A stretch of 63,629 nucleotides of DNA, counting the filler, from Stramenopiles sp. TOSAG23-3 (Eukaryota), in assembly GCA_900128585.1 (NCBI GenBank). It is 10 parts of 10 records of this genome, joined end to end, with 100 filler letters (N's around TTAATTAATTAA, not from the genome) between each part and the next. Parts side by side here need not be neighbours in the genome. Positions count along the whole stretch, not along the records: positions 15,345 to 22,911 come from LT643131.1; 9 more parts are not named here. One strand, written 5' to 3'. This document shows, piece by piece, positions 7,574-62,455 of the stretch. Each line of letters opens with the position of its first letter. Positions within the stretch are counted from its first letter, which is position 1. The translations under genes and the position numbers were made by a program. The notes beneath the pieces were generated by a model. That model was not told the origin of the DNA. It did no database searches and was given only the letters and a program-made list of their open reading frames with translations.

Positions 7574-7673
7574 NNNNNNNNNNNNNNNNNNNNNNNNNNN
7601 NNNNNNNNNNNNNNNNNTTAATTAATTAANNNNNNNNNNNNNNNNNNNNNNNNNNNNNNNNNNNNNNNNNNNN
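7574..7673. other. Artificial contig linker
   Basis: N44-TTAATTAATTAA-N44. Confidence 0.98.
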
Positions 7674-15244: not shown

Positions 15245-15344
15245 NNNNNNNNNNNNNNNNNNNNNNNNNNNNNNNNNNNNNNNNNNNNTTAATTAATTAA
15301 NNNNNNNNNNNNNNNNNNNNNNNNNNNNNNNNNNNNNNNNNNNN
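15245..15344. other. Artificial contig linker
   Basis: N44-TTAATTAATTAA-N44. Confidence 0.98.
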
Positions 15345-15345
15345 T

Positions 15346-15945
15346 GGTATCTTGGCATTCAGATTCCAAGCATGCTGGGTAATTCGTTATTTTGAAGCAT
15401 GGGTGCCGAATAACTTCTTGGGCGTCGCATCATCGTATGCACACTCTCACCAATTATGTAGCGTCTTGCCGAATAATTGCTTTTTCGCTCACGGTAGCAT
15501 TGGTGACGATACCCGTCTATGGGACACCTGGACTTTCATGCTTACAGAGAACTTTGGCACTAAGTCAGAGGCGCCTCAGAAATGCGTCCTGGATCCATGC
15601 AACAAACGTTTTGAAGAGGTAATGCTACGGCTGATGGTTGGTATCACAGCGGTTCTTCCTGTACTCTCTACCATTATCTTCCATTTCTGCTATCACAGAA
15701 TCAACAAAAATCGTGGACGTCGTGTATGTTATGGAAGTACCATAGCTTCTTTTGTGGTGTCGTTCGGGCTGGCATTTATCATCTTTTGGCAATACAGATT
15801 CAAAAATGCATGGCCCAGAGTCGGTAATACTTTTATCTTTTTCTTGTTGGTCATGTTTGCAGTGACGGCATGCAATGTCGCGGTGCTGTGGTACTATTAT
15901 ATTTCAAGGAGATCTGAGCCCGAACGGCTCACAGAAATATTTTAA
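15346..15945 (+). CDS. Multi-pass membrane protein, C-terminal part (5'-truncated)
   Basis: Open from the contig edge; three hydrophobic segments. Confidence 0.6.
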   Translation, partial: GILAFRFQACWVIRYFEAWVPNNFLGVASSYAHSHQLCSVLPNNCFFAHGSIGDDTRLWDTWTFMLTENFGTKSEAPQKCVLDPCNKRFEEVMLRLMVGITAVLPVLSTIIFHFCYHRINKNRGRRVCYGSTIASFVVSFGLAFIIFWQYRFKNAWPRVGNTFIFFLLVMFAVTACNVAVLWYYYISRRSEPERLTEIF

Positions 15946-16064
15946 AGTCCATTTGGACTTATACTTACAAAAATACTATTTTTGTCTTCTATATAATTAA
16001 TTTTTACTACACGGCCCAAGTAAAAATTGATAGGAAATGAGGAAAAAAGTCCAACTGGCAGTAA

Positions 16065-16388
16065 CACAAACTAAAACTAGACTTTGGTGTTGGCTACATT
16101 AATGCAATGGCATATGTCACTGCCGGTTTTTTGCCGAAGACAGATTTCCTGACTGCTATCGATAAAGTTACTATTGTTGGTTTTGTAAGTCAATTTCTAA
16201 TTGCATTTTCAAATTCGTTCCTATACTTATGGAAACAATATTACCCTGGTCACAAAGAAACCATTCGGTTGGTTAATATAGGTTTTGCTGTCCTTTCCGT
16301 TGTACTCATGGTGTGGGCCAGTCTTATTTACCTTCTTCCAAATTGTTTGAAAGCGAGAAGGATAAAAAATGCGGCAGCGAAAACTTAA
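16065..16388 (+). pseudogene. Pentameric ligand-gated ion channel TM-domain fragment (M2-M3 loop to M4)
   Basis: LPKTDFLTAIDK matches the pLGIC M2-M3 loop pattern and is followed by two TM helices. No ligand-binding domain upstream; in-frame TAA at 16062. Confidence 0.5.
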
Positions 16389-17363
16389 AAAGGAAAATGT
16401 GGACGGTTATTGTTTTAATTCTATATCATCATTACAGGTTCGCATCGACTCTTCAGAAACTTCTGACGATTCAATTTTAGTCAACAAAAAAACAAAAAAG
16501 AAAAAACAGTAAGTGCAGTGCACGTTAACGCGTGCCAAAACGAGCACACGTGGCACAATATACCAGGCCTTAGCAGGCATAAAAAAAATATTAGTGCATT
16601 AATTTTTAATAATTATAATAATAATTAATTTGATTAAAATAATAAATATATGTTTACTGATTGTTTTTTCATTGTATTGTTATGGAGGAGATTTAAAATT
16701 TTCTTTAAATTTACTGAATATTAGATGTGATAGTATATATACACAACCAACACACACACACCTTCGACTAATTGGCAAGACGTATAGAAGAATAGTTAGA
16801 ATTCGTGTAGACATTTAACAACGTGTGCATTCGTTGAAAGTATACATATCTATCTGACCTTAGAAATATTGCTGCCGTATAGAATTACCATTTATCCGTG
16901 TTGGGAAACTATATACTGTGTGTGGGTATCCGCGGTTAACTCTCGATCATTTTAACGTAGTTGATAGCTTTTTTTCAGACGTGTAAAAACATATCCAACG
17001 CGTGTAGAGAAAGATAGACGCGGCAGGGGATTGTTCGAAATAGTAACAACTCTTATTGTCAGGTGTGATTGGTACGGTTGGGTGTTGGCCCGTGGTTGTA
17101 GCTTTCTGGTTGTGTATCGTTGACGGTGTGGAAGATTTTCTAGAAAGGGTATAAACGTGGTGATTATATCGGAGGTTCTCAACGGGTTAGACAGCCAACA
17201 GCAAACTTCAAGCCTGGTAAGAAAGGCTATAACAGTGAATAGAAAGCTTTCTAACGTGCTTATTTTATTGCTTCAGCTGTCGCTGTTTACTTGGGTTGGA
17301 TTTGCTCGTTCAACGTGTTGAAATCTTAGAAAAGTTTCATATCAAACACCAAAAGAGTCTGAG

Positions 17364-18422
17364 ATGACACTCACTTTGTCAAAGGAAAAACAGACATGCA
17401 AGCTGCTGTGTTTGCTTATACTTGACATATTTCATCTTCTGCTACTTATCTGGAGTATTACTTTGCGATATAACCATTCGATGATAGCGCCTCTAGTATG
17501 GGCCAACATATTATATTGTATTGCTCGTGGTTATTATAATCAGAGATGCTATAAAAGATACTTTGATAGTATATTCAAAAAAAAACGTGATAGGCTTACA
17601 TTTGATAAGGACTCAACGAGGGACAATCTATCGAATTTTGCGGAACGTGTTCAAAGCGTGATTGAGTCACCTATATTTGTAGGGATAGAAGTGACTTGCT
17701 TTATATGGGTTGGAGAGACAAAAAGTGACGGACATGGTGGTCAAGTACATTCGAGCAAAAAAGTAAAGTCATTTACACATATGTATGATTTTTCAGATGC
17801 ATTCTCAACTGTAGATAAAACTCCATTTACCGGAAGCGATGTATTGCAATTAAAAGCACCAAAACGAATCCTATTCACTGGCAAGATAAAGATTGATGTT
17901 GAAAATGCTGTAAATGTAAAAGAGTGGCTCCACGCCTGGAAGCACCATTTAGTTGCTGCAAACCGTCATCGCGGTGAATCTACATCTGTGACTATACATT
18001 TGCACCCAAAGGTGCCTTTTTTTTCCAAAACCAGTCGCCAAAACAATTTTATTCGGCATGGATGGATGAAAATGGAAAATACTTTTAACCTTCAGTGTTT
18101 TTTTGCGGAAAGATTCATTTCGTTTTGCATGATGTGCAGCTCTTGTGCATTTTTTTCTTTTTGTAGCGGTGTGTCTAATTGTGCTATGGATTATGCAAAA
18201 TGCATATCGCTGATTCCTGATTTTATAAATTTTGCTCCTAAAAGTCCAGAAGGCGAAGCTCTCATTCATCCACCGCTGGATAATTTTGGGAACTATATAA
18301 AATCAAATGAAGTAATAAAAACAGAATATTCTTGGTTACAAGATGCAAATGTTGTAATTGATGGTAGTGAGCTCAACGACATCTCTGACGACATTCACAA
18401 ACGCGATATATGTTGCCTGTAG
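17364..18422 (+). CDS. Membrane protein, possibly TMEM151-like
   Basis: Two N-terminal TM helices; ESPIFVGIEVTCF..VKSFTHMYDF..VDKT weakly resembles TMEM151; ends in CCL. Confidence 0.5.
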   Translation: MTLTLSKEKQTCKLLCLLILDIFHLLLLIWSITLRYNHSMIAPLVWANILYCIARGYYNQRCYKRYFDSIFKKKRDRLTFDKDSTRDNLSNFAERVQSVIESPIFVGIEVTCFIWVGETKSDGHGGQVHSSKKVKSFTHMYDFSDAFSTVDKTPFTGSDVLQLKAPKRILFTGKIKIDVENAVNVKEWLHAWKHHLVAANRHRGESTSVTIHLHPKVPFFSKTSRQNNFIRHGWMKMENTFNLQCFFAERFISFCMMCSSCAFFSFCSGVSNCAMDYAKCISLIPDFINFAPKSPEGEALIHPPLDNFGNYIKSNEVIKTEYSWLQDANVVIDGSELNDISDDIHKRDICCL

Positions 18423-18534
18423 GAAGGTGGTTGCCTGAAGGTTAAATATATTATTTTATATTTATCAATACCTACAATAATTATAACTTTAATTATTAAG
18501 ATAACTCGAAGAGAGTAGATCCAATTATAAAATC

Positions 18535-19470
18535 TTAAAATGAATTGTATAAGATGTATGATACGATATATACTATATTACATGATATTGCGTGTTTGTT
18601 ACTGCCATTAAATAAATCGTCCTCTAAGTCCACGAATGCTGTAGGGTCGGATTCGCATAGTTTGTCCAAGATATAGCTCAATTCTGGGTAAAAAATTATT
18701 TGATCGGTAACACCGCCACCTTCCCTTTCACGAAGCCTAGAGCCACGGAATTCTCTTGCGTCATCGATCAAGACAACCTGCACACCGTTTGACTTCCTGT
18801 GTACGTCAAAAATGAAATCGAGTTCACGCAATATTGGAGAATCTTCTTTTCCCCGAGCCGTATCAAGGTATGAATAGTGCCCGTCCAAAAAATACAAAAT
18901 ATTTCTTCCTTTCATGGATTTAAAGTCATCGAAATATCGTAATACATCGCCAGAATTACCATATAATGCAACAATTTTTTTGGCATTTATATTGCCATTA
19001 TCAATTTCGTTTTGGAACCTTTGTTTGGCTTCTTCGTAAAACTTCTTGCTCAATTCTATAGTGTAAACGCGCTCGCAAGCACCTGAATTGGCTAGAAAAA
19101 GGGTTGTATCGCCCTTGTATGTCCCAGTTTCAATGCAATCATCGATCCTGTGCTGAATAGCAGCTGAAAGGACCCGCGATTTTTTAATGTTCCTCATACG
19201 CTCTGTAGAAACTTTAAGTTCGTAGCCACTGAAACTTGGAACATGCTTCTTGCAATGATTTACCCGGCATTGGTAACTAGATCCACACCGTCTGCTTTGA
19301 TCTATCATCAACTCTCGATTCATTTTTCGTAGAATGTTTTGGCGGGGCAAACCTGACAATCGCCGATGGTCATATTTTTGGTAATTGACGTGCAAGAACC
19401 GTTGCCAAGCATAGTCTATTGAGTCATCTGTGTAGAACTTCAGTTGTTTGAAATCGTATCTAACATGTTT
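18535..19470 (-). pseudogene. Bacterial-like class I SAM-dependent methyltransferase, probably disrupted
   Basis: IETGTYKGDTT, VYTIELS, GNSGDVL, YFLDGHYS, DSPILREL, VLIDDAREF. Apparent +1 slips near 19470 (A run) and 18610; upstream TAA at 19529. Confidence 0.6.
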
Positions 19471-19528
19471 TTAAGAGAGACCGTAACTTTGTTAGCGTCT
19501 GGTTAAAGTCTGCTGATGAAATTGAAAC

Positions 19529-20099
19529 TTACTGGTAATATTGAGTCTCTGTCATTCTATTTAGATATGTCACATTTATTGAAAATAGCAAATCGTTGCG
19601 AAGGTCTAACGGGGTAAGAAACATGGCGTTTTCAGCGTTGATGTCTGCATTGTTGGAAACGAGATGTTTTATAATGTTTGCGTGGCCATGCTCGGCGGCT
19701 ATATGAAGCGGTTTGGTTTCGTTTTCGTCTAGATTTATGTTTGCATGCATTCCGTCCTCTGCCAAAGCTGTTTTGAACATTTTGAGGTTTCCGTGGGTGG
19801 CAGCGAAGACGATACGTTGGTAGGCATTTTGTCGCGAGGAACGGGTTCGTTCGGGGGAGCGTGTGTTGGTTTGTTTCTTTTTTACATGTTCGATGTTTTG
19901 GAGTGCGATGCGTTCTGCGTAAACGTCCCCGACTTGCTTTGCGATATCTAAATCTTTTTGATGGTATGTCAACGCTTCATGGTAGTTTCCAAGCTTTTGA
20001 TGGGCTTCACCAATGTTGCAGTATGCTCTTCCCTCACCACCTTTATCACCCAATTGCAATGCAATATCTAAATGTTTTTTTTTGATGGTATGTCAGGGT
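19529..20099 (-). pseudogene. TPR plus ankyrin repeat fragment
   Basis: TPR EGRAYCNIGEAHQKLGNYHEALTYHQKDLDIA; ankyrin KPLHIAAEHGHANIIKHLV..TPLDL. The upstream TPR (LTYHQK/HLDIA) is broken by an A9 run at 20075-20083. Confidence 0.7.
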
Positions 20100-20459
20100 T
20101 TTCCCTTCCAAATATCTTCACACAGGATAGTCTCCAACATATGATTAATTCCTATCACGGTATGATGTCTCCCGCTATATAAATGTGTAGTGTGACACTT
20201 ACCCTACAAAACAACTCACACACCACCACCCTACACCATGACGACGACGAACGACGAACGACGACGGGACAACCAAACCACTCTTCCTCCACGCCCCCGT
20301 CCCGTTTTGGACCAAACCCCTACCTATTTTGATGGATTTTCTTTGACAATCTTCGCTTCCTGCCGTTTCACCGCAAACCCACCGCAACAGCACACAACCC
20401 ACCGCCGCAAACCCACCGCAACGGCACACAACCCACCACCACAACCCACCGCAACCAAC

Positions 20460-22565
20460 ATGAGCAACTCTAAGTTTGAAACAATGGAGTTGGGCTTGGA
20501 GTCGGCCGACAACGTCATGGTAGGTGGCGCACCGAAACAAATTAAAAGCCGTTTGAGGCCAAGTCTTGTGAAAAAACAATTGATGATAGTCAAAGAGAAA
20601 AACCCAAGACTGTTCTGGTGCGGCAACTTTTGCGTGTCCGCAATCAGTTTGGCGTTGTATATCCTGGATGTATATACGGATGTGGTGCTGTGTATCGCCA
20701 TTTACCACTACAACCATCACGGGTGGTTTTCCATCATGGTGACTTGTATCGCATTGCCGTATGTGGTGGCGGTCGCGGGGATTATGCGGTATTGTTATAT
20801 ACGCAGAGCACACCCGTTATGGAATTTTATGTTATGGAATTTCCCCTTTTTTGTACTTGTTGTACCATGTTTGGATGTCCTAATGCCGTTCTACCGTACT
20901 GGGTGCGTGAAAAAAAAGTACCAGGTCACCTTCATGGCCCAATACGAGGCCTTGCGTACCTTGAGCGCAACGTTGTTGGAATCCTTTCCACAGACCATTG
21001 TTCAAGTGTATATTTTCTTGTATTGCGATGGGAACGAAGACCAGTGTTTAGGGATTACGCAGGAAGCAGGAACAGCCTTGACACAATCGTTGATAATCAG
21101 TGTTCTGTCCATTGCGTATCGGGTGGCGCAGGTAGTCTTTGAGATGCGAAAGGAGAAGTTGGGGCTATGCCTGTATTTGAAATCGTTGATGGATATGGGC
21201 GGAGGGTTTCCGTTGCGGGCGATTATTAACAACCAAGTGGGAACCGAACTAGACATCGGGATAAAGTTGATACCAGCACAAGTCCAGTCGTTGGCCTCGG
21301 CGTTGAAGCACAACACTTCCATTGTCAAGCTAAATTTGAACGAGTGTGACATAGACGATGAAGGCTGCGAGCATTTGGCGCCCGCCCTGGCCAAGATGAC
21401 CGATTTGGAACTGCTTGGCTTAGACAGGAACCAAATCACGGACCAAGGCTGCGAGCATTTGTTGCCCGCCCTGGCCAAGATGACCGCATTGGAAACGCTT
21501 TACTTAAACGACAACAAAATCACGGACAAAGGTTGCGAGCATTTGTCGCCCGCCCTGGCCAAGATGACCGCATTGAAAAAGCTTTGCTTATGGGGCAACA
21601 AAATCACGGACCAAGGTTGCGAGCATTTGGCGCCCGCCCTGGCCAAGATGACCGCATTGGTAACGCTTGACTTAGACAGGAACCAAATCACGGACCAAGG
21701 CTGCGAGCATTTGTTGCCCGCCCTGGCCAAGATGACCGCATTGAAAGGGCTTAACTTAGGCAGCAACCAAATCACAGACAAAGGCTGCGAGCATTTGGCG
21801 CCCGCCCTGGCCAAGATGACCGCATTGTCTAGGCTTAAATTGAACGACAACCAAATCACAGACAAAGGCTGCGAGCATTTGGCGCCCGCCCTGGCCAAGA
21901 TGACGAACTTGGAAAAGTTATATATCCATGGAAACAATATTACTGAGGTTGGCGTGGAAAAACTAAAACCGTTTGCCTCGCAAATTGCCGCATCTCTTGG
22001 AGCGGACTTAAAGAGCACAAAATGGGACTTGGGCGGCAAAAACTTAACCGACAAAGATATGACATGGTTGTCGCCCGCACTGGCCAAGATGACAAACTTG
22101 GAAAAGTTATATATCCATGGAAACAATATTACTGAGGTTGGCGTGGAAAAACTAACACCGTTTGCCTCGCAAATTGCCGCATCTCTTGGGGCAGACTTAA
22201 AGAGCACAGAATGGAACTTGAGCGGCAAACACTTAACCGACCAGGATATGTTAATCGTCACGGAACTGTTAAAGAAGAATACCGCGTTGAAAGAGCTTTA
22301 CTTAAACCACAACCAAATCACGGACAAAGGTTGCGAGCATTTGGCGCCCGCCCTGCCCAAGATGACCGCATTGAAAAGGTTTAGCTTATGGAACAACCAA
22401 ATCACGGACAAAGGTTGCGAGCATTTGTCGCCCGCCCTGCCCAAGATGACCGCATTGGAAAGGTTTAGCTTATGGAACAACCAAATCACGGACCAAGGCA
22501 AAACGCAAATGCGAGAGGCGTGGAAAAATGCTGGAAAAAAATATTCAAATAATTTATTCTTGTAA
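20460..22565 (+). CDS. XK-related membrane domain fused to RNI-like leucine-rich repeats
   Basis: XK-family motifs LYILDVYTDV..GWFSIM and LLESFPQTIVQVYI..SLIISVLSI; 28-aa LRRs LxxLxLxxNQITDxGCEHLxPALAKMT. Likely ATG at 20460. Confidence 0.85.
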   Translation: MSNSKFETMELGLESADNVMVGGAPKQIKSRLRPSLVKKQLMIVKEKNPRLFWCGNFCVSAISLALYILDVYTDVVLCIAIYHYNHHGWFSIMVTCIALPYVVAVAGIMRYCYIRRAHPLWNFMLWNFPFFVLVVPCLDVLMPFYRTGCVKKKYQVTFMAQYEALRTLSATLLESFPQTIVQVYIFLYCDGNEDQCLGITQEAGTALTQSLIISVLSIAYRVAQVVFEMRKEKLGLCLYLKSLMDMGGGFPLRAIINNQVGTELDIGIKLIPAQVQSLASALKHNTSIVKLNLNECDIDDEGCEHLAPALAKMTDLELLGLDRNQITDQGCEHLLPALAKMTALETLYLNDNKITDKGCEHLSPALAKMTALKKLCLWGNKITDQGCEHLAPALAKMTALVTLDLDRNQITDQGCEHLLPALAKMTALKGLNLGSNQITDKGCEHLAPALAKMTALSRLKLNDNQITDKGCEHLAPALAKMTNLEKLYIHGNNITEVGVEKLKPFASQIAASLGADLKSTKWDLGGKNLTDKDMTWLSPALAKMTNLEKLYIHGNNITEVGVEKLTPFASQIAASLGADLKSTEWNLSGKHLTDQDMLIVTELLKKNTALKELYLNHNQITDKGCEHLAPALPKMTALKRFSLWNNQITDKGCEHLSPALPKMTALERFSLWNNQITDQGKTQMREAWKNAGKKYSNNLFL
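21361..22500 (+). repeat. 84-bp near-identical LRR coding tandem array with a duplicated 174-bp module
   Basis: Framework AACCAAATCACGGACxAAGGxTGCGAGCATTTGxxGCCCGCCCTGGCCAAGATGACCGCATTG is repeated with a variable 21-nt window. Confidence 0.95.
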
Positions 22566-22911
22566 CCCCAACAACCATATCGTCTTTCCACCAAAATGGC
22601 CGTGAGCATCAGAACGGTGGCTGTTCCTTTATTGAACATCGTTGAAAGTTGTGAGTTAAAACGTTTTTTCTTTCTTTTTTCCGTGCATTACATATGTGAT
22701 CTATAACGGGGTGGAATTGTCGTATTTAAACAAAAAACATCACTTTTCCCTTGCTTTGCCAACTTTGAACGCCCTTTGGAAAGTGTGCTTTTTAACACAA
22801 AATGCTTCTATCTTTCTTAACATGTTGTGCCCTTTTTGTTGCTATTGAGGAAGTAAATTTTAAAACAATTTTCAATGCTGTGTTTATCTAATAACACTTG
22901 GATAAATTGTA

Positions 22912-23011
22912 NNNNNNNNNNNNNNNNNNNNNNNNNNNNNNNNNNNNNNNNNNNNTTAATTAATTAANNNNNNNNNNNNNNNNNNNNNNNNNNNNNNNNN
23001 NNNNNNNNNNN
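22912..23011. other. Artificial contig linker
   Basis: N44-TTAATTAATTAA-N44. Confidence 0.98.
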
Positions 23012-24670
23012 CAAAAATGTAGAATTCTGTGGGGTCAAGAGGCCATCCTGCTTGCTCTCTTGGTCGTCTTTACTGGCGCAGTGTCGGCAGTTATATATTT
23101 TCAATATACTCGCAACTTTGCTGACCAAAAGTGGATGTTTCTATGTATACTGGCCATTTCGGCCGTGCTCCTTGCGTCGTACTTTGTCCGCACGTTTAAA
23201 GCCGCCTGTTTAAAACACGAACTACTAGCCCGAGAACAGAAAAGATTGGGGGTTAGACGAAAGCAAAGGGGGGTTCTTTTTTCGCTAGAATTTCGCTCGT
23301 GGCGTCGGGGCGTCCGCGCGATATTTAGCGTAAACGGCAAGTACTATATGCTCAATATGCGCGTCTCAGAAATCTTCGGGCAAAGTGTACAGTTGCTGAA
23401 CCTGACGACAATTTATTTGTGCTGGTTGCCGCTGGAATTTTCGTCTTTGTTGTGCGCCGTGCAAGCGTTGGAACTCTTGCTTAATCTATGGCTCGCAAAC
23501 CATACCGACTCGCAACTGGTCCGAGACAGGCAACTTCTGGTCCACATTGTGGCTGACTTCGTTTATGTTGTGCTCCCCCCGTCCATAATCTATATCGGGT
23601 TTCGGATTCCAATCAAAGTAAGCGCTTTGGTCCAAATAATTGTCTTCCCGTCGCTATCTCTGCTGTCCAAAGCCAACGCTATTTGGAACGATCTGTTTTT
23701 GATGAAAGAGAGAAGCATGTCTGTGAACACTGTGTGCCCAGGCCAGGCAAGAGGGCATAGACGTCGCGTTAGTATTTTAGGCATGATTGAAGACAAGGAT
23801 GTTACCAGAACCCAGCTTGAACATTTTCCAAGGTGGCTGCGGAATGTCTTTTCAGCTATAAACGGAACATTCCTGTTGATTTTCATGTTTTTGCCAGTGC
23901 TGCAATTGGCAACGAGGCCGGCGGACGAGGCATGTGCCAACCGTTATTCCTCGGAAGTGTGGAAAGGGTGCAGGGTGCCCGTTCCATTTTGCCAAAATAT
24001 ATTTGTCCCACGCTGCGACTGCGCCGTGTTAACGATATGTAATTACTCCCAACCGTCCCTTCCTGATTCATTAACAGGGATGAAATCGCTCATTGTGTTA
24101 ACAGTGGCCAAAGGTAACCTAACAAAGTTGCCAACCAGGATGGGTCAGCAACATCCTTCTGTAGTATCCTTGTTTGTGTACGGGACCAAGCTTGCAGAAT
24201 TACCCGATAGCATAGGTGATATGAAAGAACTCTTCGACTTGTATATCCCCAACAACGAGCTTACGACTCTTCCAGAGAGCGTCGCAAAACTTCCGAACTT
24301 GGCCAACTTGATAGTTTTCAACAACGAGCTGACTAGCGTCCCTGATTATGCTGGAGCCTTCGATCGTTTACTGCAATTGGATGTTTCGAACAATCGGTTA
24401 AACATACTTCCTGGCAACATGTTATTTCTGGAGTGGCTTCATGCGTGGAACAACACAATGGAATCGTTCCCAGACGGGCTGATCTCCTTAACTAAAGTAG
24501 ACGTGCGCCACAACCGGATCAATGCCCTTCCAAGCGAAAACTGGGAACAGATAGAGTATTTTTACGCTGCTGGAAACCCCCTCTGCCCTTATAAGTTTCC
24601 AAGCGGCGTGCAAGGACGTTGTCAAGCACAATGTTCCCCGGACTGTCCATCGCATCGGATCAGAAATCAG
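23012..24670 (+). CDS. Multi-pass membrane protein with C-terminal LRRs and Cys-rich caps (truncated at both ends)
   Basis: Several TM helices, then GCRVPVPFC..RCDCA cap, LxxLPxxI-type LRRs and GNPLC cap. The frame runs into the 35-N gap at 24671-24705. Confidence 0.85.
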
Positions 24671-24869
24671 NNNNNNNNNNNNNNNNNNNNNNNNNNNNNN
24701 NNNNNAGAAAAATTGGCTGTTATTTTTTATAGTAATTAAAATTAAAGAAAAAAAGAGGTGTAGTATACATATTCGATAAAATCTAAATGCATATTATTCT
24801 TGGGAACACTTTAGAACACTTATATATCATAAATTGATTTAAATGAAATATCTGGGATGATTAAGTCTC

Positions 24870-30576: not shown

Positions 30577-30676
30577 NNNNNNNNNNNNNNNNNNNNNNNN
30601 NNNNNNNNNNNNNNNNNNNNTTAATTAATTAANNNNNNNNNNNNNNNNNNNNNNNNNNNNNNNNNNNNNNNNNNNN
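30577..30676. other. Artificial contig linker
   Basis: N44-TTAATTAATTAA-N44. Confidence 0.98.
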
Positions 30677-38207: not shown

Positions 38208-38307
38208 NNNNNNNNNNNNNNNNNNNNNNNNNNNNNNNNNNNNNNNNNNNNTTAATTAATTAANNNNNNNNNNNNNNNNNNNNNNNNNNNNNNNNNNNNN
38301 NNNNNNN
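38208..38307. other. Artificial contig linker
   Basis: N44-TTAATTAATTAA-N44. Confidence 0.98.
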
Positions 38308-41261: not shown

Positions 41262-44028
41262 ATGTTCCAAGATAAATCCCCAACGCCCCCGGGTTCAAAG
41301 AAATCCCCCGTGGCGAGCACATCGCCACGGAGCGGGAAAAATCTCAAAGACCGCGCTGAGAGCATGGACGAGTTCGATGAACTAGAAGACGCTAACCTTG
41401 AAAAGGTCGAACTGCTCTTTCGTTTATCCCCCGTGGGCCAATTGATTTACGACAAAAAGTTACCGGAAATCATGATTATTGATGGCGCTCTTCCACTCAT
41501 GGATCGCTTGCTCAATAACATAATGGAAATTTACAAGCTATGTGAAAGCAAGGGGGAAAGTCTAGGCCCATCTCTTTCTAGTTTTATTCGATTTTTAAAT
41601 GTGGCCGAAAAGGAAATGTCGTCAAAGATAACCAGCATGACATCGTTGACACAACTGAACCTTATGCGGGAGCAGCTATTAGACACAGACAACAAGAACA
41701 TACTGAACGACGTGCTGCTGCGTCTCTTGGGGAAGAAGAGCAAAAAGTTTTCGTTTTGTGGGAAGTCGGACGATGTCATTCTCACGGAAATTCAAAATGT
41801 GCTGCAGGGGGTTTTTGAAAACAAAACATTTTCGTACCTCTCGGTCGTACCCACGGAGGAGTTTGCACCCAAAGAAGGCGACTGGATTGATGTGGACGCG
41901 GAAGCATTGGAGTTTCGGTCGACCCCCCCCCTGATTCCTGCCTTTTACCAGGAGAGGCCGAAACTTCTGAAACCGCTTTGCACTGGCCTGACGGGGAGCA
42001 AATCCGTTCACGCGATTGTTGATGACAATCGCAAACGGCCGGCGCTGCTCAACGCAGGGCTCGGGAAAACAACGCTGGCGATAGCAGCGATCAATAACAA
42101 GGCCGTGAAACAAAAATTTTCCAAAATGGTGTGGGTCAATGTGACGGCAGGGATGACGAAAATCGATTTGTACAGAGCGATAGCGGAGCAAGTTTTTTCG
42201 GTCTCTTTTCGCTCCTGGGTTCCCGAGTCGCAAGTGATCAGGTTCTTCAAAAACAAGGTTGTATCCGACCAAGTGAAGGAAAAAATTCTAGTCGTCTTGG
42301 ACGGAGTAACCACGGTGGACCTTGTTTGCGACCTCGTTCACAACGTGTTTGGGTCTGGAAAGTCTTTGAAATTGTTAATGACTGTGAACAGCAACAACAT
42401 TTCTAATTTCTCCCGCGCAGTGCAGTTTTCGAACATGCAGTCTCACTACGTGTCCCGAATGAGTGACGAGGAAGCTATATTTTGGCTTTCGCTGTGGAGC
42501 GAAGAAAACGCTAAGACGCTGAAGACTAACACTAGCGTTCAAAAATTGATCAAGTTATGTGGAAATCTTCCTGCTGCAATCAATGCCATGGGATTCGTGT
42601 ACACAGAAAAGGAGAAAGCTGGGTACGACTCGTGGGAAAGCATACACAACGCCTTGAACGAGGTAAACCCCCTTGCTGCATCCGGGTTCAACGATAACGA
42701 CGATGAAGATGAAAGTGAAACGGAGAACCTGCTCCCCCCCATTGAATGTTCGCAAAGCCTACATCATAATGATGAAAAGCTTACACGGTGACATCCGCAA
42801 GAAGCTTTATACTTTCGGTATTTTTCCCGTTGGCATGAGAATTTCGGTATCTGTCCTTCAAATACTTTGGGGCAAAGAAGAGGAAGATGTCATTAACATT
42901 GTTCATTCGCTAGAAGAAACGTGTTTGTTAAAAATTAGCCAAGAAACTCCTACAATAGTTGAGCTCGACCGGGTGGTACATCTGTTCGTGAAGAATGTGT
43001 TTCAAAGGGAACAGAGGAGGGGAGGCATAGGCCTCAACGGACCCTCCGCAATGACAGCCCTAATGATGGCGTCGCTTCAGTACATTGAAAATAGCAATTG
43101 CTCAATAATAAGTACTCTGGTCGAATCGTGCTTGCTCACGTTTAAATGGAATTTGGACATGGGCGGCACCAAAAAGGACTTGATGGCCAGGTTCAAATTA
43201 AAACTAGAAGAAGCCAAAGCGGAGTTTTTTACGTCCAAATATGGATCTCGCAAAATGTCAATTTTAAACGTAGTCGTTGCGGCAGGTTACTTTCCAGGTA
43301 TTAAACTGTTGACTGATTTAGGATTTGACATGCAAGAAAACAACGGCGAGGGCATTTCCAATTTAGAAATAGCTGGGTTAAACGGTCTATACGAAACGGT
43401 AAAAGTGTTTGCAGACAATGGGATGTTTTCCCTTACAAATACTGGTAGCAACGGCAGGACTGTGCTCTTGAATGCCTCTTCTAGAGGTTTCAACGAGTGC
43501 GTGAAGTGCCTCATATTCGCCGGCGGAAAAATCGAAGATCAAACTGCCAGTGGGGAATCTTGCACGTTTTTGGCATCATTTGGGGGCCACCATAAAACTG
43601 TAAAGTCTTTGATTCAGCGGGGGGCTGATTTCAACAAGGCGCAAAATGAAGGGCAAACGCCGCTGAGTGTTGCATCTTCTTTGGGGTTTGTAAAGGTGGT
43701 GGGGACGCTACTGGAAGTCAATTGCGATGGGGAAAAAAAGATGTCTGATGGTAAAACCGCATTATGGCTTGCAGCCAAAGGCAATCATTACAAGGTGTGT
43801 GAAATGTTAATAAAGAGTGGCGTTACAGTCAACCAAAGCGCAAAAGATGGAAGTACACCTCTGTGGATTGCCGCAAGTTGTGGAAACAAAGAAATTGTCC
43901 AGCTCCTGAGCGACTCTGGCGCCGATATTCAACCGCAAAATGAGGATGGTACGAGTGCTATGTTTGCGGCAGAGGCCGAAGGGCACGAGGATACTGCGGA
44001 ACTTTTGAAATCGCTTGGCGCGAACTAA
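41262..44028 (+). CDS. NLR-like STAND protein: helical N-terminus, NB-ARC, winged helix and ankyrin repeats (frameshift at C7, 42734-42740)
   Basis: Walker A GLGKTTLA, Walker B ILVVLDGV, GxP LCGNLPAAI. The second frame carries the winged helix (KLYTFGIFP..VLQILW) and ~7 ankyrins. Removing one C gives a single 921-aa ORF. Confidence 0.85.
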
Positions 44029-45834: not shown

Positions 45835-45934
45835 NNNNNNNNNNNNNNNNNNNNNNNNNNNNNNNNNNNNNNNNNNNNTTAATTAATTAANNNNNNNNNN
45901 NNNNNNNNNNNNNNNNNNNNNNNNNNNNNNNNNN
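45835..45934. other. Artificial contig linker
   Basis: N44-TTAATTAATTAA-N44. Confidence 0.98.
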
Positions 45935-49054: not shown

Positions 49055-49607
49055 AAAGTACTGAGACGAATGAAACAAAACAACATTTTATAATAATATA
49101 CCAAAAGGGACTTTAGAGGTGTGTAAAATGGACGTGAAATGTATATTTTCCTAATATATTTGAGTCTCATTTATTTGCTACCAGTATAATAACGTAGAGG
49201 ATTTGAGGAAGGAATTTCAGGAATTTATTTGTATTATTAGATATCAAGTGTAATATCGGTATTATAAAGATAAAAGCTAAATTTTCTTATATATATTCGT
49301 TAGGAAAAAAATTAGAAAAAGAAAGTGTACCTATTATTTAGTAATAATAGTAGTATAGATAGTCTGAAATAATTTGACGGACCAAATACATCTCATGGTA
49401 ATAATGTGACAAAATTAGAGATACGATCATCATCGCAATCTCAATCATCACCACCTCATTCATAATACTTTATATCACGAGTTTGCAATATAAGTTGTGT
49501 TTAGAAATTTCTCTTCCCCACAAACAAAGGTTCTGTTCAAGTGTATTTTTCCAAAACAATATAATATAGAGAACGATTTTCTGTTGTGCTGCAGGGAGTT
49601 GAAAACC

Positions 49608-52600
49608 ATGGCCGGGCGACCAAGAAAAACGTCTGCGGACGAGGTGGAGCTTATGCAAAGTAATCGGGGAAGAAAGCTTAGAGGGGAGGATTACATAATG
49701 TCACGTTTGTCTCAAATGACATCCAAACGGGCAAATCAGTTTCAACGAAAGCACAGTGTACAGAAAAGGAAAATGTTAGGAAAGCGACTGGAAGAACATG
49801 GAGTGGACATAGACAAAGAAATAAAGGAAACATTGGCCAATGTGAAAAACAAGTTTCAAACACACCAAAAAAAGGAAATTAATCCAACGATTCCATGTTC
49901 CCATTGGCCGAACAAAACAAATATTGAAGCGTTTAGAAAAAACGACCCGTTGTGGTTGTGGAAGTCCAAACAGAACCCCATTATTAAGAAAATGAAACAA
50001 ATGCAGAAAGAAACAAAAACATCGGTCAACAACTCCTTCTTCAACCTAGAGATCGAATGTCATAGAAAAAGGAAGCCGGTAGCTAGGCATAGACAATCGC
50101 TATGCGACCTGAGGAAAACGTTTTCGTTTGAAAACTCTACAAAAAAAACTCCTGCCCTTAGGCAAAAGAACCGTGGTATGCGGAAAAGCCAAAGCCAAGG
50201 TGAAATGTCGTTGCAGAACCATCGACGCCCTGCAACAGTAGGCAACCATGACAGCTATGAAATTGAAAGCATCTCAAGAAACTTCAAAAATTTGTTTTCT
50301 GGCTCAGCGTACAGAGATAAAGAGCGCTGTCCATACCTGAGCAAATCCATGTTACTGGCACGACGCAGTATGGAAAAACAATCGCAAAATAGGGAAGAAA
50401 AGAACAACAATACAAAGAAGGCACGGCGCAAATTTCAAAAGTCCATTTCACCGACTCCAATAATGTACAATCCCTTTGAAAAAGATCACGCATTTGTTTC
50501 CATTGTTGGAAGAGATGATAGCAATGAAAAATCGAGCGTGAGTACTGCAGCCTTATCTCATGTTTCCATTAAATCATCTTACGACACTCGATCAGAAGCG
50601 GGGGGGGCTGACAATAAACAATATATGAAAGGGTTGGGTGCGCCACCAATAGCAAGTAACGCGAACCGGGCAAACCGCAGAGGCTCCGTGCAAGTTGTCC
50701 CCGACAATGGAAACGACGTTTTTGCTTTAGACGGAGTAGCGAATTTTATAGAAAGCCAAAATACTGGTCTCTTGAAAGAGAGGAAAAAGACTGGAACAGG
50801 TCTTTACGTACGAAGGTTAAGATGGTACGATGCAAAAAATGGCCGAGCGTATTACACGCAGCCCATGATACACGTGCTTTCTAACGCAAAAAGCCACACT
50901 CTTTCACTGCGGGGCCGTGGGCTTATGCCAGAAGCGGCTAACGCCTTGGGAGAGATGATTTCAAGGAATGAACATATTGAGGTGCTGGATTGCTCATTTA
51001 ATCACTCTATGGAAGACACTGGGGCCTCCTATATTTTGAACGCGTTGCAGTACAACAAAACCCTATCTGTTCTCAATCTGAGTGCATGCCAAGTAGGCCT
51101 CCAGAGTATAGAGGCACTTGTTAATTCTATGGAACGGAATTATTCTCTGAAATCCCTCATTCTTAATTCCAATGAAATTGACGATTACTGCATTGAACTG
51201 TTGGAGCCTGTTATGGTAGATATTTCGAAAACAATAACTAATTTGGACTTGTCAAAGAATAAATTGTCGCAAGCAGGTGCGCGGTCACTAGGTCGCATTA
51301 TTCACGCCTCTGTTTTCAATTTGAAAAAGTTGGATATAAAATGGAACATGATACAAGAAAATGGCGGAGTTCACATTGCCAATGGAATTATGAAGATGAT
51401 AAGGAGTGCTTCTGCGCCAGTGAAGGGCATATCAATACCAAACAGGGCCGCCCTTAGGGAGCTCGACGTAAGTTTCACCGGAATTGATGATCGTGCAGGA
51501 ATCCTGTTCGGGAAAATCGTAGAAGATCCCGCGACACCGTTATGCAAGCTTTCATGTTCCCACAACCACAAACTCGGTATCAAAACGGCTGTTGCACTAG
51601 CGAAAGGGCTTCGGGGAAATTGTAAGCTTCGCAAGCTTGACGTAGGCCATTGCTCCTTGACAATGGAAGGGATATTGCACATCATATCTAGCTTGCAATA
51701 CAATTTTGCTTTGAATGTCTTGCATCTAGAAAACAACAACGTAAAACCCCATTTACAGTACGTTTACGAGGGCATTGCAGTTATTCTCCCCAGGCAAAAG
51801 TCTGTGCGGTGCAAAAAGTATGGTTTCGGTGATTGCACCGACGTTGTTGTAAGTTTCCCGCACAACAATGCAGTATTTTCAAAGGGATTTTTAAGAGGAG
51901 AAGAGGAAGCCAGCGACTCTGGAGAAACTGGCAGTACCGTAGCACAAACCTACAGGGACATTTTGGAGATCAACACCGTGCAAGATGCGCCGCCAAAATT
52001 TGATGCTACAGCTCTCGCTCTGCTATGGAACATTAAGCACAGCGTGTTTCACGACCGCCTTTCAATCGCACCGTCAAAAAGCAAACTTGACACATTAGAG
52101 ACTTACCAGAACCTTTTTGATAGTGACTGGGGTGAGCTGGTGAAACGAAAGGGTCTGGGAGACATCTTGATGATTAACACACCAGAAAACGCTATCGCAT
52201 TGTGAGTGACTTATACTTGTATTACGGGGCCATGGACGGCAACAGGAGCGGAGAAAGGTTCACGATCGATGAAAATGGTTGGGAGACTTTTGCTGCAAAT
52301 TGTGGGATTATCCGCGGAGGGAAAAACTACCAGAAGGTACGGGAAAAAATACTTGGATTATTTGCACTTGCAAACGAAGAGTACGGCAATGAAGACGAAT
52401 CCAGCGAAGAGAACAATCTGAACCCTGACGGATCACTGCTGCGGTTTGAATTCTTAGAAGCGCTGCTGAGAACCGCACTGTTGAAGTTTGTCGTTTTGGA
52501 GAAAAAAACAAAAGACTTAAGTGATTCGGTAGACATGCTATTTGACGTGCACATTCTCCCAAACCTTCCAAAAGAATGCCAAGTCGATGCAAACACGTTT

Positions 52601-53459: not shown

Positions 53460-53559
53460 NNNNNNNNNNNNNNNNNNNNNNNNNNNNNNNNNNNNNNNNN
53501 NNNTTAATTAATTAANNNNNNNNNNNNNNNNNNNNNNNNNNNNNNNNNNNNNNNNNNNN
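53460..53559. other. Artificial contig linker
   Basis: N44-TTAATTAATTAA-N44. Confidence 0.98.
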
Positions 53560-61081: not shown

Positions 61082-61181
61082 NNNNNNNNNNNNNNNNNNN
61101 NNNNNNNNNNNNNNNNNNNNNNNNNTTAATTAATTAANNNNNNNNNNNNNNNNNNNNNNNNNNNNNNNNNNNNNNNNNNNN
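61082..61181. other. Artificial contig linker
   Basis: N44-TTAATTAATTAA-N44. Confidence 0.98.
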
Positions 61182-62355: not shown

Positions 62356-62455
62356 NNNNNNNNNNNNNNNNNNNNNNNNNNNNNNNNNNNNNNNNNNNNT
62401 TAATTAATTAANNNNNNNNNNNNNNNNNNNNNNNNNNNNNNNNNNNNNNNNNNNN
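62356..62455. other. Artificial contig linker
   Basis: N44-TTAATTAATTAA-N44. Confidence 0.98.

Follow-up and report, generated by a model that had tools for sequence, protein, structure and literature searches.

The DNA analysed here, hereafter the window, is a stretch of 63,629 nucleotides (filler included) from Stramenopiles sp. TOSAG23-3. On its plus strand, at 20460-22565, lies a single, intronless open reading frame (ORF), a complete coding sequence including the stop codon, whose 701-residue product (P0001) joins a membrane domain to a long array of leucine-rich repeats (LRRs). By homology, the membrane domain corresponds to the first (N-terminal) repeat of the XK-related (XKR) lipid scramblases, hence the name half-XK used below. 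In the LRR array, amino-acid change accumulates on the strand face under diversifying selection. We propose that the protein works as an intracellular, diversifying LRR sensor controlling a half-XKR membrane effector, a function for which we hold the case to be evenly balanced.

A half-XK membrane domain joined to a diversifying LRR array

Tandem Repeats Finder (TRF) resolves the array into an 84-bp unit (6.5 copies at 21361-21904, 86% matches), a 252-bp super-period (2.2 copies, 88% matches), a 189-bp module (2.0 copies at 21879-22250, 93% matches) and again an 84-bp unit near the end (2.3 copies at 22309-22498, 97% matches). With 86% and 97%, the 84-bp units lie above the unit identity of at least ~80% expected of a repeat sensor. 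Nine 28-codon units can be placed in register, reading N-x-I-T-D-x-G-C-E-H-L-x-P-A-L-A-K-M-T-A-L-x-x-L-x-L-x-x: unit codons 8-11, 13-15, 17, 18 and 21 are the same in all nine, third positions too. The 28-residue register and the pattern LxxLxLxxN/C are those of ribonuclease inhibitor (RI)-type LRRs. The LRR part matches the Pfam family LRR_6 at E 6.7e-36 and, among known structures, ribonuclease inhibitor (1dfj, E 3.1e-42), as well as NOD2 and NLRPs.

Variation among the nine units is concentrated at unit codons 22, 23, 25, 27 and 28, with 4, 5, 7, 5 and 5 distinct residues, respectively. These contact codons coincide precisely with the x positions of LxxLxLxxN, the canonical strand motif, and are given a priori, so the site class was not picked post hoc. 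All the xxLxLxx strings and codon series quoted in an initial annotation of this DNA are found in the array.

We further compared seven core units, omitting unit 1 (cap-like) and unit 7 (at the junction with the 189-bp module). Their framework is 96.5% identical in DNA, against 51% at the five contact positions, and 14 of the 15 nucleotide columns at contact codons are variable, against 9 of 69 elsewhere (Fisher p 3.4e-9). Mean pairwise differences at codon positions 1, 2 and 3 amount to 0.60, 0.58 and 0.29 in the contact codons, where positions 1 and 2 vary most, as had been noticed earlier; in the framework they are 0.05, 0.00 and 0.06.

Rates of nonsynonymous (dN) and synonymous (dS) substitution were estimated by the Nei-Gojobori method, between repeat units of the window gene only. 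In the core seven, contact dN reaches 1.02 with a dS of 0.14 (ratio 7.2), while the framework has 0.021 and 0.088 (ratio 0.24). With all nine units, the respective values are 1.04 and 0.41 (ratio 2.5) for contact codons, and 0.070 and 0.218 (ratio 0.32) for the framework. In four independent pairs of sister units, supplied by the 252-bp duplication and by the final two units, the proportion of nonsynonymous differences (pN) at contact codons is 0.472, versus a pooled synonymous proportion (pS) of 0.119 (Fisher p 8.6e-6). The homogenised framework with hypervariable strand codons claimed by the initial annotation is borne out by these ratios.

Framework leucines are written TTG at unit codons 11 and 21, CTG at 15, CTT at 24 and TTA at 26, and framework alanines GCC at 14 and 16 and GCA at 20, constantly across units. 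Because synonymous codon choice is position-specific yet the same from unit to unit, we reject codon bias as the source of the identical framework codons; the units share recent descent or recombinational homogenisation. The reuse of sub-blocks, remarked upon before, takes the form of a 73-nt exact repeat starting at 21419 and 21671, the longest in the array.

Along the gene (all features on the plus strand), the first array consists of seven 84-bp RI-type units with homogenised framework at 21345-21932; besides the five contact codons, unit codons 2, 6 and 12 are hypervariable there. Two copies of the 189-bp module follow at 21933-22310, TRF placing the duplication at 21879-22250. The duplication had been recognised beforehand as one of 58 residues: the event stands, at 93% matches, and its size is corrected to 63 residues (189 bp). 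Each copy is made of one irregular 35-residue unit (NNITEVGVEKL.PFASQIAASLGADLKST.W.L.G) and one 28-residue unit. The two copies differ by 4 synonymous and 9 nonsynonymous codons, and the module is conserved, as a variant, in the environmental fragment P0185. The second array (22311-22478) holds two 84-bp units that are 97% identical, with 0 synonymous and 2 nonsynonymous differences, at unit codons 12 (A/S) and 22 (K/E). A C-terminal LRR cap (NQITDQGKTQMREAWKNAGKKYSNNLFL) closes the protein at 22479-22562. It is conserved in relatives, the same cap being present in P0002, P0016, P0174, P0179, P0193 and the F-box-like proteins described below.

XK-related scramblases are executioners of animal apoptosis, released through caspase cleavage or phosphorylation. 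In P0001, the half-XK domain covers residues 49-232 (20604-21155), delimited by Pfam, profile search, AlphaFold2 (AF2), VIA-align and conservation across 47 sequences. It is preceded by a basic N-terminal tail predicted to be cytosolic (residues 1-48, 20460-20603, with 9 Lys+Arg in 48 residues). Residues 233-295 (21156-21344) comprise a juxtamembrane amphipathic helix (236-246), a conserved MGxGxPLRAI linker and the LRR N-cap.

The Pfam model XK-related (PF09815) matches residues 59-224 with 38.7 bits (cut-off 24.8) and E 7.6e-10, spanning profile positions 2-175 of 337 only, that is, the first half. Similarly, the match ends at profile position 201 of 337 or earlier in all 26 matching relatives. 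With a profile built from four members of the family, the best sequence in the PDB is rat XKR9 (7p14, E 0.0061). In this alignment D70/D74 and E170/E174/P177/Q178 fall on matching XKR9 residues, as do the family motifs LDxYTD and E..LES.PQ.ILQ.Y on corresponding ones.

An AF2 model built with a 47-relative alignment has a mean predicted local distance difference test (pLDDT) of 83 and a predicted template modelling score (pTM) of 0.75; it replaced a model from four sequences that was unusable (pLDDT 42.5). Only the N-terminal residues 1-26 stay below a pLDDT of 50. The model consists of four transmembrane (TM) helices and one inserted helix pair, with the LRRs directly after: TM1 (49-83), TM2 (87-114), a partly inserted segment at 119-145 (helices 119-126 and 129-145), TM3 (153-189) and TM4 (199-232), then the amphipathic helix. 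Compared with VIA-align against 48,161 chains, it finds XKR9 at rank 1 (Z 13.0, root-mean-square deviation 3.4, 159 aligned residues), XKR4 at rank 2 (Z 11.5) and XKR8 at rank 4 (Z 10.0). On a second look, ranks 1-5 are all XKR chains, namely XKR9 (7p16, Z 13.0; 7p14, 13.0), XKR8 (7dce, 11.9), XKR4 (9boj, 11.5) and again XKR8 (8xej, 10.0); the next chain has a Z of 9.4. Foldseek also places XKR9 on top (E 0.14, probability 1.00), with XKR4 and XKR8 at probabilities of 0.94-0.99. We base the XKR assignment on the Foldseek rank and probability, the VIA Z-scores and the sequence profiles. Matches in the ESM Atlas, with scores of 0.80 or lower, were treated as leads only; the two best clusters are XK-related.

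Two related repeats make up XKR9, each of them combining four TM helices with a partly inserted helix (PMC8298096). P0001 holds one such four-TM repeat. The pairing of an XK-related domain with LRRs, as initially annotated, is upheld by Pfam, profile and fold, with the amendment that the membrane part corresponds to the first half of the model only.

All 47 sequences share D139 and Q178, and D70, D74, P129, Y162, R166, E170, E174, P177, Q182, S210, G247 and G249 are at least 90% conserved. The same source (PMC8298096) names as a hallmark of the XKR family the clustered acidic residues that TM1 and TM3 carry within the N-terminal domain. P0001 retains buried acidic residues there, D70 and D74 on TM1 and E170 and E174 on TM3, the latter two within an R/E/E..PQ motif (R166, E170, E174, P177, Q178). 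In Xkr8, scrambling needs D26, D30, K134, E137 and E141 of helices α1 and α4, together with R183 (PMC8500837); we equate D70/D74 and E170/E174 with Xkr8 residues through the XKR9 alignment and the i, i+4 spacing.

As for topology, the predicted inner loops (1-48, 115-118, 146-152 and 233-262) carry 9, 2, 3 and 3 Lys+Arg, whereas the outer ones (84-86 and 190-198) carry 0 and 0. The C-terminus of XKR proteins is intracellular (PMC8298096). From the charge bias, the four TM passes and this precedent, the LRR array is predicted to be cytosolic, not cell-surface. The cysteines, one per LRR unit and 11 in 411 residues, agree with such a location. So do the EF-hand, ankyrin and ubiquitin domains of relatives and the occurrence of the same LRR cassette behind F-box-like N-termini. 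The initial suggestion of a sensor for prey, pathogen or self recognition is modified by this prediction, which points to an intracellular sensor and not to a surface receptor for prey or self.

Relatives and environmental variants

A profile search of 1.84 billion cluster representatives (50% identity) retrieved 365 proteins at E<=0.001, of which 144 reach E<=1e-10 and 34 reach E<=1e-30; by this count, the half-XK module defines a family of at least 365 clusters. Among 150 listed relatives, 66 of the longer ones were scanned against Pfam at E<=1e-4. XK-related was found in 26 of them (23 at or above the family cut-off), LRR_6 in 22, the decapeptide repeat PF25296 in 18, ankyrin in 5, EF-hand in 4 and ubiquitin in one; 14 have no Pfam family. 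The C-terminal partners of the half-XK module are LRR, ankyrin or decapeptide repeats. Neither P0001 nor any of the 66 scanned relatives has a Pfam match to an NTPase family (NACHT or NB-ARC). Nearly all LRR-bearing relatives carry the precomputed Pfam accession PF27087.1.

When 73 membrane domains are placed on a maximum-likelihood tree, the proteins with decapeptide repeats form a single clade (support 99/97), and LRR and ankyrin forms are intermixed in another (95/90); the 31 rows with no scanned or recognised C-terminal family were left unlabelled. P0001 itself groups with P0002, P0003, P0004 and P0010 in a quick tree. All 18 relatives with a stated source are environmental or come from EukProt.

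Adjacent 28-residue units at least 70% identical occur in 8 of 153 proteins. In six relatives, the amino-acid difference is 0.40-0.93 at the five contact positions versus 0.03-0.16 at the other 23; P0003 was left out of this comparison, its array being equal to that of P0002. The clearest pair is P0009 and P0156, in which the 211 residues leading up to the array show no difference; across three units, 12 of 15 contact positions and 0 of 69 framework positions differ. Compared with P0009, P0155 has an exact gap of 56 residues, equivalent to two units fewer. These two proteins are also mosaic, their C-terminal third (framework and cap) being near-identical and the membrane part far more diverged (~57% identity overall), which suggests recombination between paralogues. 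P0016 and P0160 have unequal unit numbers on the common framework CRHLAPALAEMKGL. In four short environmental fragments (P0173, P0174, P0179 and P0193), the framework of the window gene (CEHLAPALAKMT) recurs together with its cap, while contact residues and unit numbers are different.

The same LRR cassette and cap are found behind a short N-terminus in P0165-P0168, P0175 and P0177; P0167, P0168 and P0175 share the motif CxHLAPAxAKMT within the cassette. The F-box match of the three cassette proteins that were scanned is borderline, with 20.3, 20.6 and 20.8 bits for a Pfam cut-off of 20.5. These F-box-like proteins differ from one another at contact residues and in unit number. Among the compared proteins, the variable LRR module is paired with at least two different partner domains.

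Seawater reads add to this picture. Relative to the window, contigs of run X4 carry K357Q, C376H and W378Y with no synonymous change, and in the second module 6 synonymous and 5 nonsynonymous changes, H553R and G554N among them. One X4 contig omits exactly 84 bp (22374 to 22459), that is, one unit, and others link units in a different order. In keeping with the initial reading, relatives and environmental sequences vary at the same positions and in unit number, and X4 contigs also in unit order, with alleles here indistinguishable from paralogues or sister species. Metagenome scans with alignment A1 gave 156 pattern matches, 0 confirmed, and the framework DNA pattern gave 0 matches.

Proposed mechanism and competing explanations

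In the mechanism we propose, a cytosolic horseshoe of RI-type 28-residue LRRs would act as the recognition module. Recent tandem duplication and/or unequal recombination keep its repeat DNA uniform, while diversifying selection pushes apart five solvent-exposed β-strand residues per unit. The resulting face may bind a cytosolic ligand that varies, the most plausible candidates being proteins of pathogens or viruses, or some other sign of non-self, and binding would alter the state or oligomerisation of the half-XK domain. The latter would probably pair with a second copy to rebuild an eight-helix XKR unit; this idea comes from the two-repeat build of XKR proteins and from the proposal that Xkr4 needs dimerisation and a ligand (PMC12334663). 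The output could be lipid scrambling or another membrane change, e.g., phosphatidylserine exposure or cell death.

A wider extension, which we consider unlikely as a whole, would make the family a hitherto undescribed, NTPase-less class of innate immune or cell-fate receptors of marine protists, with a half-XKR switched on by a hypervariable sensor. In this class, an LRR, ankyrin or decapeptide sensor would bind a protein of a virus or parasite; activation would perhaps come about as the ligand drives two halves to pair, and the infected cell would expose phosphatidylserine or die. The cassette shared with F-box-like proteins would feed at least two outputs, one being membrane scrambling and the other ubiquitin-dependent degradation. 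The half-size domain would also represent, in a living organism, the single-repeat state from which animal XKR scramblases descended.

Several observations weigh against the sensor-effector proposal. The Foldseek E-value is weak, with no match at E<=0.001, and helical bundles can reach a Z of ~13 through arrangement alone. That half of an XKR fold could scramble lipids is an extrapolation, and no activity, ligand, localisation or phenotype is on record for any family member. The dN/dS among repeats of one gene differs from dN/dS among alleles, and recombination among units violates what the method assumes. In the relative P0069, three units agree at all contact residues, a recent duplication with no divergence. 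The variants from X4 and from the protein collection may be paralogues or other species rather than alleles. Finally, Illumina assemblies of repeats with high internal conservation are described as omitting or inventing units (PMC12222747). The unit order and number in our array are unverified, the gene lying on a 7.6-kb short-read contig; the hypervariable pattern itself is independent of unit order.

Among the alternatives, we give most room to a membrane domain that is not a scramblase, which is still improbable: it might be an anchor, a channel-like module or a dock for lipid-transfer proteins, with the LRRs recruiting cargo. The presence of just one of the two XKR repeats would fit, and many XKR family members have functions that are still called elusive (PMC8298096). 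Against it speak the charged and polar residues inside the membrane, at least 90% conserved over the 47 sequences and beyond the needs of an anchor, several of which align with the hallmark acidic cluster. Somewhat less probable is an ordinary regulatory or scaffold LRR with a single conserved cellular partner, comparable to the partner binding of XK, in which recent expansion and per-unit specialisation took place with no arms race. Strand positions do differ among units in all LRR proteins, the framework is conserved across relatives with ~50-60% identity in the membrane domain, and the plain duplication in P0069, with its three units identical at contact residues, belongs on this side as well. 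Such a scaffold is hard to square with a contact-codon dN of ~7-12 times dS, with the exchange of 12 of 15 contact residues and 0 of 69 framework residues between P0009 and P0156, or with the varying unit number in relatives and the environmental variants that strike the same codons. We hold a surface receptor, whose outward LRRs would recognise prey, mates or pathogens with the XK-like part as anchor and transducer, to be very unlikely. LRR ectodomains are common in receptors, and four N-x-S/T sequons lie in the LRR region of P0001. The protein has, however, no signal peptide, a basic N-terminus, an even number of TM helices and the inner/outer charge bias given above; XKR termini are intracellular; its RI-type LRRs best match the cytosolic RI, NOD2, NLRPs and RanGAP; each unit has a free cysteine (11 in 411 residues); and the cassette recurs behind F-box-like domains, with EF-hand and ankyrin domains in relatives.

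Two further explanations concern the origin of the array rather than its role. An assembly artefact, with units of several loci or alleles collapsed or misordered by a short-read assembler, seems to us about as remote as the surface receptor. The 7.6-kb contig belongs to a fragmentary assembly, no contig of any run bridges the whole array, and Illumina misassembly is reported to be frequent for repeats of high internal conservation (PMC12222747). In run X1, on the other hand, 31 of 31 contig pieces match the window with an identity of 99% or more, an agreement that is not independent if X1 is the source sample, as it may be. Unit-specific pieces have a depth of 145-289, versus 215-217 in the unique flanks; with depths so near those of the flanks, no unit looks collapsed or multi-copy, and the array does not read as the collapse of several loci, the danger that had been foreseen for it. 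The gene is partly uncovered in runs X3, X4 and X8, to which we attach no weight. Moreover, longer k-mers or read pairs can bridge the longest exact repeat of 73 nt, and reading frame, caps and module order agree with relatives. Mutagenic retrohoming from an adenine-rich template, as in diversity-generating retroelements (DGRs), is the least credible of all, and we rejected it. The variation indeed falls mostly on codon positions 1 and 2, with position 3 often fixed. No reverse transcriptase match was found in the four flanking contig ORFs (at least 150 residues) or in 26 other scanned ORFs of the window, and no template copy lies outside the array within the window. The changes go beyond template adenines (TGG, CAT and GAC at codon 27, AGG and GGA at 28, TCT at 22), all units differ, which is beyond the reach of one template, and synonymous rates are alike inside and outside the variable codons (0.14 vs 0.09). 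The preference for positive selection over a DGR, already voiced in the initial annotation, is retained on these grounds.

Compared with XKR8, XKR9 and XKR4 (PF09815), the protein shares the sequence family, the fold of the N-terminal repeat, the acidic cluster of TM1 and TM3 and, as we propose, regulation through a cytosolic C-terminal extension. It differs by its one four-TM repeat and by an LRR, ankyrin or decapeptide array in place of the short tail controlled by caspase or kinase. In addition, the half-XK family comes from marine protists, not animals, and is known here from sequence and model.

The closest likeness on the side of the repeats is with the HNWD NOD-like receptors (NLRs) of fungi (het-e, het-d, het-r), which also have highly identical units, few hypervariable positions on the binding face and dN above dS. 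Fungal repeat NLRs have units more than 80% identical in DNA, positively selected hypervariable positions, and units that are gained, lost and shuffled (PMC12222747). Here the repeats are LRRs, not WD40, ANK or tetratricopeptide repeats (TPRs), there is no NACHT or NB-ARC, and the effector would be the membrane-integral half-XK domain; HNWD repeats are polymorphic among alleles, whereas our variants are known only from relatives and X4 contigs. With NLRs in general, the logic of a variable repeat sensor plus an executioner domain would be shared, the NTPase switch would not. The signature of non-self receptors read into this gene previously is accordingly kept for its HNWD-like repeat pattern and dropped for the NLR class, as there is no NOD/NTPase domain. 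One case of hypervariable LRRs with high internal conservation is reported, in a sea-urchin NLR (PMC12222747).

Shuffling of LRR units with diversifying selection is described for brown-alga ROCO genes (PMC3341825) and for Tetrahymena (PMC6564038). These are also protist or algal LRR arrays that diversify through shuffling of unit-sized blocks. There, the unit is an exon shuffled by means of introns, and the partner is a GTPase or kinase; here, the ORF is intronless and the partner is half-XK. F-box/LRR adaptors resemble P0001 in that P0167, P0168 and P0175 share its cassette and C-terminal cap, with no membrane domain there and no F-box in P0001.

In the general plan, LRRC8 volume-regulated anion channels are similar: their four-TM domain leads into an LRR horseshoe at the C-terminus, which lies in the cytosol and regulates the membrane part. 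Their membrane fold is pannexin-like and unrelated to XKR, and LRRC8 LRRs are not known to be hypervariable. LRRC8A:C reaches a Z of only 7.7 against the half-XK model in VIA-align.

Full-text literature searches (supplements being outside their scope) found no paper on the architecture of half-XK plus a repeat array. Hypervariable repeats of high internal conservation, as in fungal NLRs, and unit shuffling under diversifying selection are already known; what is new is the XK domain in single-repeat form, its NTPase-less fusion to such arrays, and the cassette shared with F-box-like proteins. If the proposal is true, the XKR fold would be able to exist as a half-unit, which bears on the origin of the two-repeat fold and on the possible antiquity of the activation by dimerisation that has been proposed for Xkr4. 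It would also provide a sensor-plus-executioner design with no NTPase switch, and a testable candidate for the detection of intracellular threats (e.g., viruses) in uncultured marine eukaryotes. With 365 clusters, and with its 18 sourced proteins all environmental or from EukProt, the half-XK family is large and belongs to the unexplored ocean proteome.

Genomic setting of the gene

P0001 is homologous from end to end to P0002, P0004 and P0154, conserved C-terminal cap included. Its start at 20460 is backed by N-terminal homology to P0004 and P0154 (MSNSKFE / MADSKFE). We take 20460 and not 20238 as the start because relatives begin at the position matching 20460. In the 5' leader or promoter region, TRF detects a C/A-rich tandem repeat of 34 bp at 20369-20455 on the plus strand (2.6 copies, 90% matches). 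It ends five bases upstream of the start codon, and an in-frame extension would reach back to 20238.

The window is built of contigs separated by spacers of the form N44-TTAATTAATTAA-N44, roughly each 7.6 kb (7574-7673, 15245-15344, 22912-23011, 30577-30676, 38208-38307, 45835-45934, 53460-53559, 61082-61181 and 62356-62455). The pieces are mostly of ~7.5 kb and ordered by descending length. Since they are separate contigs joined by spacers, genes on different pieces are not genomic neighbours, and the real context of the half-XK/LRR gene is the piece 15345-22911 only, a contig of 7.6 kb. The other ORFs on it comprise a fragment with TPR/ankyrin, one with weak resemblance to methyltransferases, and two with no family. 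The remaining pieces contain plainly eukaryotic genes: Pex16, Hid1/dymeclin, NOL10, and NB-ARC with ankyrin. By shared words, the window best matches three small public runs of one organism (0.91, 0.89 and 0.36), and small shares are present in marine metagenomes and metatranscriptomes as well. The shares in runs X6-X20 are small, and we read no habitat from them.

There is no second half-XK gene within the window, and the only other LRR match to the array in it lies at 50931-51743, with 24-25% identity. A 902-residue ORF at 49497-52205 (+) has RI-type LRRs (LRR_6, E 1.7e-12) and no half-XK domain. At 41262-44028 (+), two overlapping ORFs jointly hold NB-ARC (E 1.7e-17) and ankyrin repeats (E 3e-36), forming an NLR-like gene with an ankyrin sensor, interrupted by a frameshift or a short intron. 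On the next piece of the window, a 559-residue ORF at 23060-24739 (+) has a hydrophobic N-terminal half and non-RI LRRs (LRR_8, LRR_14). Broken by an internal N gap at 24671-24705, it is a membrane-plus-LRR protein of a different type.

Contigs of the polyA run X8 match 20491-20697 (with one difference) and 22314-22488, a weak hint that the half-XK/LRR gene or a close copy is transcribed. Another X8 contig (1270 nt, depth 56.6) matches just the 102 bases at 22600-22701, just past the stop, the rest being unlike; a spliced or overlapping transcript could explain this, as could a shared 3' element.

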